Part shown: positions 4,786 through 61,181 of the stretch, one piece after another
Numbering within the stretch: position 1 is the first letter of the stretch
How the letters are laid out: the number at the start of each line of letters is the position of its first letter
Source: Escherichia phage vB_EcoM_VR7
Strand: one strand, 5' to 3'
DNA length: 64,000 nt
Sequence record: NC_014792.1
The notes under the pieces: generated by a model
What the model saw: the letters and a program-made list of their open reading frames with translations, nothing else
Told to the model about the DNA's origin: nothing
The model's database searches: none
Position numbers and translations under genes: made by a program

Positions 4786-5889
4786 TTAATAGACGTAATC
4801 GTATATAATACCAGCTTCCAATGCCGAACGGTGGACGATACGACCGTTACGAGATTCCTGTACATCAACTTCCGGGTAATCACTAAGCATTTTGGCTAAT
4901 ACCGCCAGATGACAATAATATGGTGTATCCTCTTTAGTGGCTTTTTTCCAATCTGTACTTTCAGATGTTAATTTCTGAATAGCGTCCATAACCCACCAGC
5001 CACACCAAATATACGCAGTATTACGGACAGGAAGTGGATGTACATAAATTAAAGGGCATTCTTCTGGAATAACAGGCTCTGCTTCTTCCACCGTAACAGA
5101 CTTATTACCTGATTTAACTGAATTTGTAAAGCCTGTTTGCGATGCGGTAACTTCACAAGTATATGACTTCAAGCCTTCAGTGGATTCCGTTATTGCTCTT
5201 GTTGCTTCTGTTGAGTTGTCGTCCCATTTATATGCAAGAGTAGCACCAGGGATAGCAGGAGACACAGAAGCTGTCAAATTGAATGGAACATCAACCGTCG
5301 CAGTAGACGGGCCTGAAATCTCAACAGTGAACTCAGGAAATGTATTGTTTTCGACCGTAACAACTACTGCCTCAGGATTAATAACTTGATTGTCATAATC
5401 TGCAGCAGAAACGGTAATTTGACAAGTTAAAGAAACTGGTCCTGCGACAGTAGCAGTACGAGTAATATCTTTAGTAATTTCACCGGTAGACCACAAATAT
5501 GCTATTGTAGCTCCACCAGGTTCACCTGTTACGTCGGCCGAAGCGTTATATTCCTCGCCAACTTTAACGGTTGGAGTGGAAGTTGTTAATGTTGCAGTTG
5601 CAGACATAGTCTTGTTATTAACTGTAATAGTTGTTTGAGCCTCTGCCGTTTCAGGCTCTCCTTCTTCCGGCGTTGTGGTGGCAACAACTTTAATTACTTT
5701 TGAACCTGCTGGGCCAGCTGCAATATAATCCATAGTAGCAATAACAGAAGCTTGTGGAACATCATCAACGGTCCATACAAAAGATTCGGTACCAGCGACA
5801 GCGGCTCCAGCTCCAGTGGCAGTAAAATTAGTTGTTGCACCTATAACCGCTGTAGGTGTTAAAGGGGCAATTGATACAGTATAAGCCAT
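4786..5889 (-). CDS. hoc: Hoc, highly immunogenic outer capsid protein
   Basis: About 367 aa from MAYTVSIAPLTP; Ig-like repeats plus C-terminal YVHPLPVRNTAYIWCGWWVMDAIQK...YPEVDVQESRNG matching T4 Hoc; GGAG RBS before the internal ATG. Confidence 0.85.
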   Translation of the reverse strand: MAYTVSIAPLTPTAVIGATTNFTATGAGAAVAGTESFVWTVDDVPQASVIATMDYIAAGPAGSKVIKVVATTTPEEGEPETAEAQTTITVNNKTMSATATLTTSTPTVKVGEEYNASADVTGEPGGATIAYLWSTGEITKDITRTATVAGPVSLTCQITVSAADYDNQVINPEAVVVTVENNTFPEFTVEISGPSTATVDVPFNLTASVSPAIPGATLAYKWDDNSTEATRAITESTEGLKSYTCEVTASQTGFTNSVKSGNKSVTVEEAEPVIPEECPLIYVHPLPVRNTAYIWCGWWVMDAIQKLTSESTDWKKATKEDTPYYCHLAVLAKMLSDYPEVDVQESRNGRIVHRSALEAGIIYDYVY

Positions 5890-6651: not shown

Positions 6652-8151
6652 ATGGATATCAAAATCAACTTTTTAAATTTTAGTCATGTACATGTTGAAT
6701 GTGAAGATAGTATCTTCTATGAACTCCGTGACTATTTCAGTTTTGAAGCCGAAAACTATCGGTTTAACCCTAAATTCAAAGCGGGAGTTTGGGACGGACG
6801 TATCCGTCTCCTGGATTATAACCGTAAATTACCATACGGCTTAGTTAACCAGATTAAAAAATTCGCTGACCAGTTTGGTTATTCATTTTGGATTGACCCT
6901 CAAATCACCGAGAAAGAGGAAATCTCTCGTGCGGATTTCGATAAATGGGTCGAGTCAAAAGAAATCTATTCAGGCCATACCAAGATTACTCCCCATTGGT
7001 ACCAAACAGACGCCGTATACGACGGTCTGGTCAACAGAAGAAAGATATTGAACTTACCTACGTCTGCAGGTAAAAGCCTCATCCAGGCGCTTCTGGCGCG
7101 ATATTATCTCGAGAACTATGAAGGCAAGGTTCTTATCCTTGTACCTACAACCGCGCTTGTTGACCAGATGATTAACGATTTCGTCGATTACAGATTGTTC
7201 CCTCGAGAAGCTTGTCTCGGTATCCGTTCCGGAACTAAACGTGATTCAGATGCAATGATTTATGTGTCTACTTATCAGACGGCAGTAAAACAACCTAAAG
7301 AATGGTTTTCACAGTTCGGTCAGTTTATGAATGATGAATGCCATATGGCTACTGGTAAATCCATTTCGACTGTTATCGAAGGCCTGACTAATTGTATGTT
7401 TAAATTTGGTCTCTCTGGTTCTCTCCGTGACGGCAAAGCAAACCTTATGCAATATATGGGTCTGTTTGGTGATATCTTTAAACCAGTATCCACATCCCAA
7501 TTAATGGATGAAGGCCAAGTTACTGACCTTAAGATAAATAGTATTTTCCTTCGTTACCCTGATGAATTCACCGTTAAAATGAAAGGCAAATCTTATCAAG
7601 ATGAAATCAAGGTAATTACAAAAGCTACACGTAGAAATAAATGGGTAACAAACCTCGCACTCAAGCTTGCTAAAAAAGATGAAAACGTCTTTTTGATGTT
7701 TAAGAATATCGAGCATGGTAAATCGATGTTTGAAATGCTTAAGGAAGCAGGTCATGAGAACGTGTATTATGTTTCTGGGGAAGTTGATACAGAAACACGT
7801 AACGCATTAAAGGTCATGGCAGAGAATGGAAAGGGAATTATCGTTGTAGCTTCATATGGTGTATTCTCGACGGGGATTTCCGTTAAAAACCTCCATCATA
7901 TTATTTTCGCTCACCCGGTCAAGTCAAAGGTAATTGTACTCCAGACAATTGGTCGTGTACTTCGAAAACATGAATCCAAATCGCAAGCAAACGTTTTTGA
8001 TATCGTGGATGATATGGGTGTTAAACCTAAATCGGCAAATGCTAAAAAGAAATATGTTCATTTGAACTTCGCCCTAAAACATGGCCTTGAACGTATACAA
8101 CGATATGCTGATGAACGTTTTAACTATGTAATTAAACAGGTGGAAATATAA
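6652..8151 (+). CDS. uvsW: UvsW DNA/RNA helicase
   Basis: Strong match to T4 UvsW from MDIKINF; SF2 helicase motifs (LNLPTSAGKS, DECH); the track start at 6613 is rejected as an N-terminal extension. Confidence 0.9.
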   Translation: MDIKINFLNFSHVHVECEDSIFYELRDYFSFEAENYRFNPKFKAGVWDGRIRLLDYNRKLPYGLVNQIKKFADQFGYSFWIDPQITEKEEISRADFDKWVESKEIYSGHTKITPHWYQTDAVYDGLVNRRKILNLPTSAGKSLIQALLARYYLENYEGKVLILVPTTALVDQMINDFVDYRLFPREACLGIRSGTKRDSDAMIYVSTYQTAVKQPKEWFSQFGQFMNDECHMATGKSISTVIEGLTNCMFKFGLSGSLRDGKANLMQYMGLFGDIFKPVSTSQLMDEGQVTDLKINSIFLRYPDEFTVKMKGKSYQDEIKVITKATRRNKWVTNLALKLAKKDENVFLMFKNIEHGKSMFEMLKEAGHENVYYVSGEVDTETRNALKVMAENGKGIIVVASYGVFSTGISVKNLHHIIFAHPVKSKVIVLQTIGRVLRKHESKSQANVFDIVDDMGVKPKSANAKKKYVHLNFALKHGLERIQRYADERFNYVIKQVEI

Positions 8152-8378
8152 TGAAGTCATTTGAAGAAATTATGTATGAAGCGGCAATTGAAAGCTTCAT
8201 GTCTAAGATAGGTTCTTGTCAGACCATGGACGGTCTGAAGGAGCTGGAAGGTTATTATAAAAAGCGCAGCAAAGAAGCTGAATTGAAAGATTCCGATGAT
8301 ATCAGTGTTCGCGATGCTCTAGCAGGTAAACGTGCCGAGCTTGAGGATATGGACGACGAAGAAGACGAAGATTTCTAA
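8151..8378 (+). CDS. uvsW.1: UvsW.1 small acidic protein
   Basis: 75 aa; ATGA overlap with the uvsW stop; same position and size as T4 UvsW.1. Confidence 0.65.
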   Translation: MKSFEEIMYEAAIESFMSKIGSCQTMDGLKELEGYYKKRSKEAELKDSDDISVRDALAGKRAELEDMDDEEDEDF

Positions 8379-8435
8379 ATAAAAAGGCCCCAACCAAAAA
8401 GGAAGGGGCAAAACCAAAATGGTTAACAACACTAG

Positions 8436-8603
8436 CTAAATTAAAAGTTGGGTCTCGTTCAGTTGCTCTTGAGTATTTTCCGTAACTGGCAAACTCTGAA
8501 CATAATTATAACAGGCGCCCGGATGCACCGGACCTTGGTCTGTATCCACAACCAATGCAGAATCGATTGGAGTTTTACAGACAACACAAATCTTATCTGA
8601 CAT
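8436..8603 (-). CDS. small Cys-containing protein (CxxC...C), not in the ORF track (below 60 aa)
   Basis: 55 aa MSDKICVVCKTPIDSALVVDTDQGPVHPGACYNY...; GAGGAGA RBS; hairpin plus T-run terminator just downstream on the minus strand. Confidence 0.4.
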   Translation of the reverse strand: MSDKICVVCKTPIDSALVVDTDQGPVHPGACYNYVQSLPVTENTQEQLNETQLLI

Positions 8604-8635
8604 GATTGTCTCCTCAGTTAAACTTACATATCTAT

Positions 8636-8740
8636 TTAGTGCTTCTTTAATGCGGCATTAATAAACTGTTGAAATTCACGCATCTTCTCTTCAGAAGGTT
8701 TTAATGGTTTTCTAATATTTGCTTTACGACAACCCATCAT
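8636..8740 (-). CDS. small protein translationally coupled to uvsY, not in the ORF track
   Basis: 34 aa MMGCRKANIRKPLKPSEEKMREFQQFINAALKKH; ATGA overlap with the uvsY stop. Confidence 0.35.
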   Translation of the reverse strand: MMGCRKANIRKPLKPSEEKMREFQQFINAALKKH

Positions 8741-9171
8741 TTACCTGCCTCAAATTGTCTTATTTCTAACATATGTTTAAGTGCGAAACTTCGTGACTTA
8801 ACACCATCTAATGCAGCGCTACAGAAGTCCTGGAGCAGTGCCCAATATTGAATTGAAGTATCAATCTTAAGCACGCTTGAATCTGCAGCCATGACTGTTT
8901 TCAATTCTGACTTCTCGTACACATCCATGCATACTTCTTCCCCTGGGTCACCCCTTCCTGTATAATGGTCTAGTCGTTTTTTCAGTGCAGTCTTCTTCTG
9001 AATCTCAAGACGCATTATTTCTTTCTTGCAGTTAGTATACAATCTCAACCATTTGCTATGCAACAAAACGTTGTTTTGTGTTTCATATTGAATTTGTGTA
9101 CCATCAATTTTTAAATCTGCATCCAACTCATCCTGAAATACTTCCAACTTATATTCAATCTCTGTTTTCAT
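8737..9171 (-). CDS. uvsY: UvsY recombination mediator
   Basis: Matches T4 UvsY throughout (YSKWL..EIMRLEIQKKTALKKRLDHYTGRGD..SRSFALKHMLEIRQFEAGK); start taken at MKTEIEY because the upstream ATG lies inside the promoter. Confidence 0.85.
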   Translation of the reverse strand: MKTEIEYKLEVFQDELDADLKIDGTQIQYETQNNVLLHSKWLRLYTNCKKEIMRLEIQKKTALKKRLDHYTGRGDPGEEVCMDVYEKSELKTVMAADSSVLKIDTSIQYWALLQDFCSAALDGVKSRSFALKHMLEIRQFEAGK

Positions 9172-9196
9172 AATGTATCCAATGTAAGGGTCTAGA

Positions 9197-9226
9197 ACCA
9201 TTATACAGCCATAAAATTAAAGCATT
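9197..9226 (-). promoter_or_regulatory. MotA-dependent middle promoter for uvsY
   Basis: Minus strand reads TGCTTTA, 12 nt, TATAAT, then GGTTCTAGACC. Confidence 0.55.
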
Positions 9227-9614
9227 AACCGTTTTGACTTAACTGAATCCTGATTTGTTCGAGGGTGTCAGGGTCATCAACAATGCTGAACTGAACCGTT
9301 ACGATGATGGAGTTATCATCATACATAGGGACAACCGCAACCTGTAGATTGCTTATCCTTGGTTCGAAGTTCCGCACCGCGGAGACGATGTTGCGTTTAA
9401 TAGTATCTGTGATTAATGGAGTGATATTCTCAAAAAGCTGATTACTTATATCACATCCAAATTCAGGCATAAAAGGCCTTGACCCTTTTCTTGTGGTGAT
9501 TATTCCCAGAAGACTGTTCTTAACAGACCTTGCACCAGTTACTTTAGCAACGTCTTTATCCCAACTCATTGACAAGTCGGGAGGCACATCGCTATACATT
9601 TTGTTTATATTCAT
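9225..9614 (-). CDS. 25: baseplate wedge protein gp25
   Basis: 129 aa; strong match to T4 gp25 (NSLLGIITTRKGSRPF.PEFGCD). Confidence 0.85.
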   Translation of the reverse strand: MNINKMYSDVPPDLSMSWDKDVAKVTGARSVKNSLLGIITTRKGSRPFMPEFGCDISNQLFENITPLITDTIKRNIVSAVRNFEPRISNLQVAVVPMYDDNSIIVTVQFSIVDDPDTLEQIRIQLSQNG

Positions 9615-23613: not shown

Positions 23614-23729
23614 TTTATTCTCCAGTGTTTTATTGTGTAACTCAGTATGGAATCATTATGCACTGGACCAACCCTGTTGTAAACCCCTTTATGGAAAATA
23701 AAAAAAGGGACTCCGAAGAGTCCCTGAAC

Positions 23730-23891
23730 TTATGCTTTCGGCTTACCAAAGCAAGCTGCATCGGCACGCAATACCGCACGAGCACGAGCCTGAAGTTTAT
23801 CAGTTACCTGATTGATTCGCTTGTTGGACGCACGCTTGTAACCAGCGCGTTTGGAGGAGCCATCAACAACTTTAACTTCTTTCTTAGCCAT
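23730..23891 (-). CDS. small highly basic protein (53 aa), not in the ORF track
   Basis: MAKKEVKVVDGSSKRAGYKRASNKRINQVTDKLQARARAVLRADAACFGKPKA; hairpin plus T-run terminator immediately after the stop on the minus strand. Confidence 0.3.
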   Translation of the reverse strand: MAKKEVKVVDGSSKRAGYKRASNKRINQVTDKLQARARAVLRADAACFGKPKA

Positions 23892-54906: not shown

Positions 54907-55071
54907 TTATTCCTCTGGGTTGTACACATGATTTTCCATGTGTACAGCATATTCCTGATACATATCTTCAATTGGTTCCTGGAACTTAAAATCAGCTCCA
55001 AGAAATTCCTCAAAGCAAGCCTGCTCGCGTGTACGCTGACCAGTGATGGTGTTCTCTAAGTTATGACTCAT
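54907..55071 (-). CDS. small acidic protein (54 aa), not in the ORF track
   Basis: MSHNLENTITGQRTREQACFEEFLGADFKFQEPIEDMYQEYAVHMENHVYNPEE; weak RBS; between asiA and motA. Confidence 0.3.
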   Translation of the reverse strand: MSHNLENTITGQRTREQACFEEFLGADFKFQEPIEDMYQEYAVHMENHVYNPEE

Positions 55072-55172
55072 AGCCTTTACCCTTATGTTTCTGTTTACGA
55101 GTTGACTCTTTAAAGTTTTTCTTCTTGTCCTTATGGACAGAAGCCTTATTGAAATCGTGCTTAGCTACTAGA

Positions 55173-55370
55173 TTATTCATAATGTGCAATTACCTCTCTT
55201 AAACATCCACCTGTAAGACTGAAACGCTTGGCTACCCCACACTCAATGATATGTTCTGAAAGCATATTCACATCAGTATAACCCAGCTCGACGATGAAGT
55301 ATTTTATAGTTTCCTTATCACGAGAATTTAAACTATTGAAATACTCTGATTTTGAATTAAGAGTCTTCAT
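55173..55370 (-). CDS. hypothetical protein
   Basis: 65 aa ORF. Confidence 0.4.
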   Translation of the reverse strand: MKTLNSKSEYFNSLNSRDKETIKYFIVELGYTDVNMLSEHIIECGVAKRFSLTGGCLREVIAHYE

Positions 55371-57268: not shown

Positions 57269-57348
57269 AGTTTTTGTGATTCAGTGTGTAACTCAGTATG
57301 GAATCATTATGCATCAGGTCAAGGGTCTTGTACACTACTTTTTAAAAT

Positions 57349-57372
57349 AAAAAAGGACCCCGAAGGGTCCTA
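57349..57372 (-). terminator. Rho-independent terminator downstream of gene 52
   Basis: GGACCCTTCGGGGTCC hairpin followed by TTTTTTATTTT on the minus strand. Confidence 0.65.
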
Positions 57373-57462
57373 GTTTTTAAGAATCAATCACTTTGCCAAT
57401 AACCCAGGCAATCAACAGGCCAACTACAGCAGCACAAATCACTGCATATTCATTTTCTATGC

Positions 57463-58842
57463 TCATAGAGCCTCCAAGTCATTAAGGTATTCAGTTTTAA
57501 CATCAGTTGCCTTCCAGTACTCATGCTCAGCTTTCTTAGCCTTTGCTTCGTCTGCAAGCTTCTTGGCTTCGTCAGAGGTCATATGGTAGATGTTCATCGC
57601 CACTAACTTCTCTGCATAATCGCCATATATTTCGCTTGCCTGGAGCTCCTCAATCAACTTCTTACGAGGTTTCCCCTGGATAACAACCTTGCCGTCAATC
57701 ACTTCTTTAATAAAGAAGACTTTCGCCCGGGCCAGTTTAAATGCTGCTTCAGTTTCTTTAATCTTGCTATCAATTCGCACTTGGACATAAGTCTTACGGA
57801 CATCAACGAAATCGCGAATCAGGTCAAGCGTGTTGGTGTATTCAGCCAGTTTACCTTTGTGATTAAGCACTGTTAAATTCTGGGAGAGCTTTTCAATCAG
57901 ACCAAAGTCTTTCATGATTTTCTCATGATTCTCTTCTTCAGTGCCGTCCAGCTTGTATTCTTTACGGAATTTAATCTTAAACCCAAAACCATGTTCGCCG
58001 CAGTTATCTTTCCAGGTGATAAAACCTTTCTCTTCCAGCGGGTCCAGGATTTTACTTGTATACTTTTCCAGGTTCCATTGAACCGGGATTTCAGTAATTT
58101 CCATTTGAGTCCTGGAAGTCATTTTGTACGTGCCATGAAGCTCATACTTACCAGGCTCTTCCAGCTCAACCACTTCACCGCGGAATTCTGGATATTTTAC
58201 TTTCGGAGCAACCGGCTCACGACCTTCCACGATAGCTTTAACAGCTTCCTTGACATCCTGGAACGAATGAGGAAGAATATCAGTAGCGAAGCCAACAGCA
58301 ATCCCAGAAGTGGCGTTAAGTAATACAGTAGGAATAACAGGAAGATAAAAAGCAGGAGGCTTATGTTCTTCATCAGGATGGACCGGAGCATATTCTGTAT
58401 CCTTAAACAAGTTGTAAAAGTTCTTTGAAACCCTTGCGAATACATAACGAGCTGATGATGCTTCTGGAACCATTCTGGAACCAAAGTTGCCCTGTCCATC
58501 AAACATAGGGTATTCATTTTTATATGTTGCGACCAAACCAGAAGTTGCTTCTTCAGCTGATGCTTCACCATGGTGATAACCATAATCAGCTACGCCACCT
58601 GCGATGGATGCAACCTTGTGGAATTTATTCTTATCGCCACGAGCCAGGTCTAATGCTCTCGCCATAACAAATCTGTGAACTGGTTTAAAACCATCAATCA
58701 TGTTTGGGATGGCGCGACCTTCCACAGTGTAGATAGCATATGACAATGCTTCCACATCAATAATGTCTTTTAGACTACGTGGGTTAAGGGACCCCATGGA
58801 ATCACTGAACTGTTTGGACATCATACTTAAAACGTCAGACAT
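57463..58842 (-). CDS. 52: DNA topoisomerase II medium subunit gp52
   Basis: 459 aa; strong match to T4 gp52 (AIPNMIDGFKPV.RFV.ARALDLARG.K.KFHK.ASIAGGVAD.GYHHGE). Confidence 0.9.
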   Translation of the reverse strand: MSDVLSMMSKQFSDSMGSLNPRSLKDIIDVEALSYAIYTVEGRAIPNMIDGFKPVHRFVMARALDLARGDKNKFHKVASIAGGVADYGYHHGEASAEEATSGLVATYKNEYPMFDGQGNFGSRMVPEASSARYVFARVSKNFYNLFKDTEYAPVHPDEEHKPPAFYLPVIPTVLLNATSGIAVGFATDILPHSFQDVKEAVKAIVEGREPVAPKVKYPEFRGEVVELEEPGKYELHGTYKMTSRTQMEITEIPVQWNLEKYTSKILDPLEEKGFITWKDNCGEHGFGFKIKFRKEYKLDGTEEENHEKIMKDFGLIEKLSQNLTVLNHKGKLAEYTNTLDLIRDFVDVRKTYVQVRIDSKIKETEAAFKLARAKVFFIKEVIDGKVVIQGKPRKKLIEELQASEIYGDYAEKLVAMNIYHMTSDEAKKLADEAKAKKAEHEYWKATDVKTEYLNDLEAL

Positions 58843-58983
58843 ATATCACCTTACCAGATTAACGAATGTACTGCCATTATAGCATCAGAAATAAAAAGCA
58901 CAACCTGCACTAGTGCAAACATAACTCCATAATACAGCGCTACCAATAAGGTAGCAAGGGCTAACGAGTAGCCCAAGATTTTC

Positions 58984-59172
58984 TTAATCATTGCTCACCG
59001 CGGAAACCATAAATTTAACAAAGGCATCAACTACAAACCATCCACACAAGAAATAAACAAACCACATAGGCGGGATGAAGACACCTGCGACAAAAAGAGT
59101 TACTAAAACAATGACCGCCACTAGATAAATGAATGAAAAGACTGATGTCATATTTTCCTCAAGGGCGTCCAA
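58984..59172 (-). CDS. small membrane protein
   Basis: 62 aa with two hydrophobic helices; T4 ac/stp region. Confidence 0.4.
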
Positions 59173-59240
59173 AGACGCCAGTTAATTTCAGATTATGACG
59201 ATGCCATTGCATCACATGTTCATTATGGAAATTACTCATA

Positions 59241-60573: not shown

Positions 60574-60839
60574 AATATTATCCTCAAAAGAAATAGTTAA
60601 AGTAAACACGCACATGGTCAATCATAAAAACAATTGGGAAAATGCTCAGGACAACAAACAGTACAAACATGTTCCAAATGGCTTTAAGTAACTTTTTCAT
60701 AATCATCTCCAGTAGTTGATAGGTTCATTATACTACAACCACCGGAGATGTACACTCTTTTATGCTGTTATTAATAAACTAAAACACACACAAATCATTG
60801 GAATGGATAATACCCAGATAAGACACCAATTTTTGCTGC

Positions 60840-61106: not shown

Positions 61107-61181
61107 TTTTTCTCCAGTTGTTTGGTAACTCAGTATGGAATCATTATACATAGACTCCATACTGATGTACACTATTTTTAA

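Follow-up and report, generated by a model that had tools for sequence, protein, structure and literature searches.

Seven small genes of a T4-like coliphage, among them a conserved, probably zinc-binding UvsY.-2 and a 34-residue ORF coupled to uvsY

Introduction

In bacteriophage T4, the small gene uvsY.-2 is located downstream of the recombination mediator gene uvsY, convergent with uvsW and uvsW.1, and is preceded by uvsY.-1. Its 55-residue product (NP_049797) belongs to the Pfam family DUF2685 (PF10886) and to phrog_1043, and knock-down of the gene by CRISPRi-ART was reported to reduce plating and impair infection, which complementation rescues (PMC11879866). The neighboring UvsY.-1 (NP_049798) is a protein of 74 residues coupled to the uvsY stop codon, while in Kanagawavirus and Dhakavirus phages other small uvsY-coupled proteins occupy the same slot (CIP9_010, QHS01546.1; Kosakonia phage 305, QYN80360.1; PSD2002_0129; KIT01_191; phrog_25483). 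Our search of the literature on T4 ribosome profiling or small proteins found nothing relevant.

This study analyzed a 64-kb stretch of phage DNA, hereafter the window, which belongs to a T4-like coliphage of the genus Gaprivervirus and has a DNA identity of 95-98% with Escherichia phage vB_EcoM_VR25 (Straboviridae, Tevenvirinae, Gaprivervirus), namely 98.2% across 1.2 kb around uvsY and 94.9% in a second sampled stretch. The genes around positions 8436-8740 encode UvsW, UvsW.1, UvsY, gp25, gp26 and gp51. A sequence-only reading of the window had listed seven ORFs shorter than 60 aa as small genes, and we find that these are already known, mostly named small genes of the T4 family.

Results

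Seven small ORFs carry a gene-like coding signal

All the seven listed ORFs were found, all on the minus strand, and each has either a ribosome-binding site or an overlap with the upstream gene; the coordinates given for four of them were exact, while the three marked as approximate were off by 1-19 nt. Because 47 ORFs of at least 25 aa occur within 4.5 kb of the window, a short ORF alone is not evidence for a gene. Log-likelihood scores of codon usage were computed from a model built on the 48 ORFs in the window that reach 150 aa or more, and 160 small "shadow" ORFs, which lie out of frame within long genes, served as the control. The seven ORFs scored +0.06 to +0.50 bits/codon, compared with means of -0.17 bits/codon for the shadow ORFs (sd 0.155, n=160) and +0.32 for the long genes, and their individual values were attained by 0 to 5.6% of the shadow ORFs (n=160). 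The lowest scores were those of the membrane peptides, which are skewed in composition. Codon usage is gene-like for all seven.

Database comparisons agree with this. Six of the seven match PHROGs at E 1e-23 or better, six are present as exact sequences with accessions in public databases, five are annotated in VR25 (VR25_202, 224, 269, 279 and 286), and five have named T4 homologues (uvsY.-2, 30.9, asiA.1, 52.1 and ndd.4). Phage VR7 has identical copies of five of the small proteins, one of which occurs in VR7 alone, so the window probably represents VR7 or a phage nearly identical to it, although VR7 was not itself among the hits in the phage collection. Conservation of the reading frame in relatives, the check that the sequence-only reading had itself proposed, was found for every one of the seven, and an Rfam gathering scan of the whole window gave no match to known RNA elements. 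Judged from their sequences, the seven ORFs are genuine small genes.

UvsY.-2 retains an invariant C2HC motif

The ORF at 8436..8603 (minus strand) had been described as encoding a CxxC protein; it does contain C6-x2-C9 and is the 55-aa homologue of uvsY.-2, with a GAGGAG Shine-Dalgarno sequence at 8610..8615 (minus strand), 6 nt upstream of its ATG. The protein matches DUF2685 with 99.9 bits (cut-off 25; E=9e-29) over profile positions 1-54 of 55, VR25 and SP18 both have its gene annotated, and public databases contain the exact protein sequence. It shares 80% identity and the same length with T4 UvsY.-2, and both carry the motif C-x2-C-x17-H-x3-C and the tail EEQLNETQLL. The gene also has the same place downstream of uvsY and convergent with uvsW and uvsW.1; a 34-aa ORF precedes it in the window where uvsY.-1 does in T4, and otherwise nothing material differs.

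The residues C6, C9, H27 and C31 never vary among 26 homologues whose identity falls as low as 38%, nor do K10, I13, G24 and G29, and the tail keeps its acidic stretch and its hydrophobic C-terminus. Across four genera the identity of UvsY.-2 is 76-98%, usually above that of UvsY: 80% versus 59% in T4-type loci, and 84% versus 52% in L028 (loci L012-L037). In the AlphaFold2 (AF2) model, residues 1-40 have block means of pLDDT 79-87, and the tail is of low confidence. A Foldseek search of the PDB with this model returned mostly zinc-binding folds (LIM, GATA, RING, PHD and L24e) among its top 50 matches, with a best E of 0.45 and TM of 0.45-0.55, values that are not significant, and a sequence search of the PDB gave no solved-structure relative at E <=1. 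The zinc-finger assignment therefore relies on the invariant motif together with a qualitative trend of the fold, from which UvsY.-2 is probably zinc-binding.

In the most distant loci, those of Acj9 (L038) and a distant metagenomic locus (L039), uvsY.-2 is not adjacent to uvsY, and in the latter it is still near uvsW.1 and uvsW. Adjacency of uvsY and uvsY.-2 as a functional argument fails in both, and thus synteny by itself does not support a functional link to UvsY.

In public records, the name "major capsid protein" attached to the 55-aa UvsY.-2 is likely wrong, and HemW proteins of 396 aa are co-clustered with UvsY.-2 in a public protein cluster.

A 34-aa ORF is coupled to uvsY and under constraint as a protein

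The slot that holds uvsY.-1 in T4 is occupied in the window by a basic 34-aa ORF, MMGCRKANIRKPLKPSEEKMREFQQFINAALKKH, at 8636..8740 (minus strand). The uvsY gene upstream of it (8737..9201, minus strand) encodes a protein 100% identical to VR25 UvsY, and the coupling of the two genes proposed earlier is borne out: the uvsY stop codon at 8737-8739 and the start codon of the small ORF at 8738-8740 form a 4-nt ATGA overlap, and the upstream 30 nt contain a GAGG Shine-Dalgarno sequence (8748..8751, minus strand) within the uvsY 3′ end, 7 nt before that start. The same GAGG is found in SP18, there ahead of uvsY.-1. As for uvsY itself, its longest ORF has 154 aa from the ATG at 9201, as annotated in SP18, and the VR25 annotation has 144 aa (435 nt) with a start at ~9171, so the start-site annotation is inconsistent among relatives.

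A 100% identical copy of the 34-aa ORF occurs in VR25, uncalled there in both GenBank and RefSeq, and VR25 and TH15 are the sole sharers of this allele in the phage collection; the exact protein sequence was absent from a collection of ~15 billion proteins. Syntenic homologues abutting uvsY were detected by tblastn, so that three genera are represented when the Gaprivervirus-type window is counted: in Kanagawavirus, CIP9 (E=6e-5), Entb_45, IME523 and Kosakonia phage 305 (E=5e-4), and in Dhakavirus, PSD2002, UGJNEcP3, KIT01, JS98 and others. The family, of 29-35 aa with the core ...KPSEERMRKFQEFINAAL..., is annotated as "hypothetical protein" in these two genera, specifically in CIP9, Kosakonia phage 305, PSD2002, UGJNEcP3 and KIT01, and the window's member matches phrog_25483 weakly (E=1e-4). 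An exhaustive profile search of 1.84 billion representatives retrieved six small proteins of the family (E 7e-18 to 7e-9), including the near-identical representative P0053, along with two long proteins that were taken as spurious. By these searches, this is a narrow family confined to T4-like phages. Its members follow the pattern x-RK-x4-5-K-x-PKPSEE(R/K)M-x-(K/E)(F/L)Q(E/Q)FINAAL-x2-NK, their start overlaps the uvsY stop, and their end lies ~28-32 nt upstream of uvsY.-2; their lengths are 29, 32, 34 and 35 aa, and in-frame indels account for all the differences.

Compared with the other genera, the 34-aa ORF gave a saturated pS of 0.73-0.80 and a pN of 0.23-0.37, with the limited power of 34 codons (pS 0.76 and pN 0.23 versus CIP9; dN/dS 0.13 versus PSD2002), and the codons of FQ(E/Q)FINAAL vary at third positions across the family. 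The N-terminal half has a dN/dS of 0.7-1.0 within Dhakavirus and between Dhakavirus and Kanagawavirus. The saturated pS, the low pN and the third-position changes in FINAAL thus point to constraint on the protein, mainly on its C-terminal half.

These values bear on the alternative that the ORF encodes no functional peptide and is either a translational spacer from uvsY to uvsY.-2 or a signal at the nucleotide level, such as a promoter, a ribosome-binding site or an origin-associated element. The very small size of the ORF and its overlap with the uvsY stop are in line with that alternative, as is the near neutrality of its N-terminal half in some comparisons. However, KPSEE...FQEFINAAL is kept across three genera despite the saturated synonymous sites and with third-position changes inside the motif, the length changes in the family are all in frame, the codon usage is gene-like at 0.30 bits/codon, a value reached by 0 of the 160 shadow ORFs, and the Rfam scan offers no match for an RNA element.

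In the AF2 model the peptide has a disordered basic N-terminus and one helix at residues 17-32 (pLDDT ~95), and this helix is amphipathic, with a hydrophobic moment above that of 97.7% of shuffles (2.3% attain it). The peptide is probably an accessory factor, one that may bind nucleic acid or an acidic protein partner; because it is absent from many relatives and its slot is empty in five loci, it would be dispensable.

The slot between uvsY and uvsY.-2 is swappable

A plastic genome periphery is a familiar trait of T4-type genomes, and the swapping of genes in a slot is no new phenomenon. Among 28 IMG/VR loci surveyed around uvsY.-2, uvsY adjoins uvsY.-2 in 26. The slot between them holds uvsY.-1 in ten of these 26, at times together with a 36-aa MKNISK... 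ORF or another 30-aa ORF, and the KPSEE family in seven; a 38-aa MKNISK... ORF stands alone in one (VR20), a 222-aa homing-endonuclease-like ORF is found in two, two unrelated ORFs in one, and in five the slot is empty, with a gap of 13-41 nt. Never do uvsY.-1 and the KPSEE family occur together in the 26 loci. Within Gaprivervirus the flanks of the slot are at least 95% identical, and the cassette switches exactly between the uvsY stop and the final 2-3 codons before the uvsY.-2 ribosome-binding site.

The survey bears on the spacer or nucleotide-signal reading from both sides. The slot may be empty, and the last codons with the downstream ribosome-binding region are kept as DNA even across unrelated cassettes, as might be expected if these nucleotides mattered in themselves; yet the five loci with a gap of 13-41 nt indicate that uvsY.-2 needs no spacer ORF. 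Taken with the constraint on the peptide, we regard it as quite unlikely that the 34-aa ORF lacks a functional product, and consider it a protein-coding cassette.

Another alternative is that this ORF is a decayed remnant, either of uvsY.-1 or of a former homing endonuclease. In T4, SP18 and VR26 it is indeed uvsY.-1 that occupies the slot, and two Dhakavirus loci have the 222-aa endonuclease-like ORF there, with its stop at the position where the small ORF also ends. But the 34-aa family profile gave no signal to T4 UvsY.-1 (-2.3 bits), to the slot endonuclease (0.1 bits) or to the MKNISK-type ORFs of 36-38 aa (~0-1 bits), and the 30-aa ORF of L024 likewise showed no homology signal to it. 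The DNA alignment with SP18 indicates a replacement between uvsY.-1 and the 34-aa ORF. An origin of the small ORF from the endonuclease, which the shared stop position and an "RKFQ" string could suggest, was also rejected, as the DNA alignment points to wholesale replacement and only the last ~10 nt are shared. An intact frame and a motif conserved over three genera would be unexpected of a remnant, which makes descent by decay extremely improbable. The preferred reading is that of a cassette exchanged as a unit.

Homing-endonuclease-like ORFs were also observed elsewhere in this region. One is located between uvsW and uvsW.1 in SP18 (L002 1645-2244), and those between uvsY and uvsY.-2 in the two Dhakavirus loci lie at 804-1472 of L018 and L019. 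The uvsW-uvsY neighborhood is a recurrent target of mobile endonuclease genes.

Transcription signals around the small genes

The genes uvsY, 34-aa ORF and uvsY.-2 are arranged head to tail on the minus strand, with the Shine-Dalgarno sequences GAGG and GAGGAG ahead of the latter two. Between uvsY.-2 and the convergent uvsW.1, a hairpin (GCCCC...GGGGC) followed by a U-run (8381..8409, minus strand; -17 kcal/mol, z = -2.2) is the probable terminator of this unit, and its sequence is kept in VR25 and SP18. The promoter/terminator scan had missed it because of its 13-nt loop, and it was recovered by folding. A sigma-70 promoter scan over 8100-9400 gave fewer matches than in shuffles and was thus uninformative.

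Two others of the seven, the 30.9 homologue and the 29-aa ORF described below, are each the last gene ahead of a strong terminator. The 53-aa ORF of 30.9 had been credited with a terminator of its own, which was located at 23706..23725 (minus strand); it consists of an 8-bp stem closed by a UUCG loop and then a T-run, and an early-promoter-like block comes after it. The 29-aa ORF is followed by GGACCC-UUCG-GGGUCC + U6 (57348..57371, minus strand). A 21-nt block, G(C/T)ATAATGATTCCATACTGAG, occurs in three copies on the minus strand (23641-23661, 57292-57312 and 61129-61149) with 0-1 mismatch, where none would be expected by chance. The copies at 23641-23661 and 57292-57312 are just downstream of a terminator, and the block resembles the -10/start region of early promoters in T4-type phages.

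The other five small genes and the annotation of the set

The very basic protein of 53 aa (23730..23891, minus strand), for which a pI of 10.8 agrees with that description, is the gp30.9 homologue; it is 100% identical to VR25_224, matches phrog_1427 (E=3e-26) and shares 70% identity over 43 aa with T4 gp30.9 (E=1e-19), in the same position between 30.8 and rIII. The acidic protein of 54 aa (54907..55071, minus strand; pI 4.5, as anticipated) is AsiA.1-like and lies directly downstream of asiA. It matches VR7 gp269 exactly, VR25_269 at 93% and phrog_5245 at E=3e-34, and it shares 36% identity across 42 aa (E=1e-5, 12 sequences searched) with T4 AsiA.1, which has the same slot and orientation. 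At ~55061-55189, the window has ~100 nt with a very basic 42-aa ORF that begins with TTG and overlaps the AsiA.1-like start, whereas VR25 has there the 93-aa VR25_270 (JS10 gp0246-like), which amounts to an indel difference between close relatives.

The three remaining ORFs had been called short membrane peptides, and each does have a 17-residue stretch with a Kyte-Doolittle hydropathy of 2.3-3.0. The first, listed at 57386-57475, is actually at 57377..57466 (minus strand) and encodes a 29-aa single-pass membrane peptide whose ORF overlaps the gene 52 stop through ATGA. It is an exact match to VR7 gp278, matches phrog_28787 (E=2e-23) and has an annotated counterpart in VR26_275. T4 MotA.1 (49 aa) has the same slot and the same 4-nt overlap with gene 52, but its similarity to the peptide is weak, 18 hydrophobic residues aligning at 44% identity (E=0.03 when 12 sequences were searched). 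The peptide is best taken as a positional and compositional analogue of MotA.1, its true family being that of VR7 gp278/phrog_28787. In VR25 its counterpart has 32 aa, is strongly diverged and is unannotated (L011 ~5650-5746), while VR25 and the window hardly differ in the gene 52 end, the terminator and the promoter downstream of it; from this comparison, the peptide alone appears to be a hotspot where local divergence or allele exchange has taken place.

The second membrane ORF, listed at 58860-58994, runs over 58851..58991 (minus strand) and encodes the 46-aa gp52.1 homologue. This protein matches DUF7396 (73.2 bits, cut-off 27; E=2e-20), is 100% identical to VR25_279 and shares 87% identity, position and orientation with T4 gp52.1. 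The third, listed at 60603-60707, spans 60584..60706 (minus strand; 40 aa) and is the Ndd.4 homologue (VR25_286; phrog_3098). A start at 60700 is likelier and gives 38 aa; a GGAG is found 6 nt upstream of it, and the VR25 annotation and the phrog_3098 alignment (from residue 3) both begin there. T4 Ndd.4, at the same position of the ndd.x cluster, is 61% identical over 36 aa (E=1e-16).

Several further observations were made in this region. The 26-aa product of the 59159-59239 ORF (minus strand) is clearly homologous to T4 Stp, which activates the host anticodon nuclease PrrC, and is annotated only as "hypothetical" in VR25 (VR25_281); the ORF is one more gene below 60 aa, outside the list of seven. 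At 58984-59172 (minus strand), a hydrophobic 62-aa ORF (55 aa if begun at an internal ATG, as in VR25_280) occupies the slot of the T4 acridine-resistance gene ac and overlaps the 52.1 start by 8 nt, exactly like T4 ac/52.1. Two further database names are likely wrong, the 54-aa AsiA.1-like protein being called "RNA polymerase sigma factor" and the 46-aa gp52.1 "recombination endonuclease subunit".

Are these ORFs, then, unrecognized genes that public annotation has missed, as the description "unannotated small genes" would have it? The description is apt insofar as they fall under the 60-aa cut-off of the ORF track. For the 34-aa ORF it also fits that VR25 has no call of the gene and that the protein collection lacks the exact sequence, and the 32-aa gene-52-coupled version is uncalled in VR25 too. 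Against this, the accessions of the exact sequences refute it for six of the seven and VR25 annotates five, and even the seventh belongs to a family annotated in five other phages, with P0053 near-identical and a weak phrog_25483 match. As a reading of the list it is very unlikely. The one gap left in the annotation concerns the uvsY-coupled 34-aa ORF of the VR25-like lineage, its family being already annotated elsewhere.

Discussion

Based on the coding signal, conservation, family membership and operon anatomy observed here, we propose, with a probability of about 90%, that the seven ORFs are real small protein-coding genes of an ordinary kind and belong to the accessory set of T4-type phages. 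Around uvsY, the three minus-strand genes uvsY, 34-aa ORF and uvsY.-2 would form one unit ending at the hairpin and U-run (8409-8381), in which translation of the 34-aa ORF would be coupled to that of uvsY by means of the ATGA overlap and the Shine-Dalgarno sequence inside uvsY. This ORF would represent one of several unrelated, interchangeable cassettes of a hypervariable slot. The other five would be homologues or positional equivalents of T4 30.9, asiA.1, motA.1, 52.1 and ndd.4; of their products, one is basic, one is acidic, and the remaining three are membrane peptides with a single pass.

As to zinc binding, partners and biological roles, we infer the following. UvsY.-2 may consist of a single C2HC zinc-knuckle domain, treble-clef-like, and a disordered acidic tail whose hydrophobic C-terminus is conserved, and we hypothesize that it could act through this tail as a small protein-protein adaptor for efficient infection. 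It is conceivable, if unlikely, that the slot holds interchangeable, unrelated partners (UvsY.-1, the MKNISK peptides and the KPSEE...FINAAL peptide) that tune a UvsY.-2-based machine, in which case the 34-aa peptide would be an analogue of UvsY.-1 that pairs with UvsY.-2; the net charges of the two are +5.6 and -5.4, respectively. If so, this machine might be, for example, an accessory of recombination or replication restart, or a counter-defense module.

Since relatives already have six of the seven genes on record and the seventh is a member of a known small family, the sequence-only reading was correct and its finding ordinary. A 60-aa ORF cut-off hides many genuine T4-type genes, those described here being already catalogued, and the 34-aa uvsY-coupled gene, missing in the VR25 annotation, could be added to the Gaprivervirus records. 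UvsY.-2, being unusually conserved, probably zinc-binding and reportedly important for T4 infection, is a reasonable biochemical target.

Compared with the known systems, the spacing of the putative zinc ligands in UvsY.-2 is nearly that of the LIM-type/treble-clef zinc fingers (C-x2-C-x16-23-H-x2-C), from which UvsY.-2 differs in having H-x3-C instead of H-x2-C and a single knuckle rather than a double LIM module. The 34-aa ORF shares with T4 UvsY.-1 the slot and the coupling to the uvsY stop, whereas UvsY.-1 is twice as long, acidic instead of basic and without detectable sequence relationship to it. The closest counterparts of the 34-aa protein are the Kanagawavirus and Dhakavirus uvsY-coupled proteins, which are 45-67% identical to it, have the KPSEE(R/K)M...FQ(E/Q)FINAAL motif and the basic N-terminus in common with it, overlap the uvsY stop by 1-4 nt and end ~28 nt before uvsY.-2, while the window's version is distinguished by a doubled Met start and a C-terminus of ...KKH in place of ...NK.
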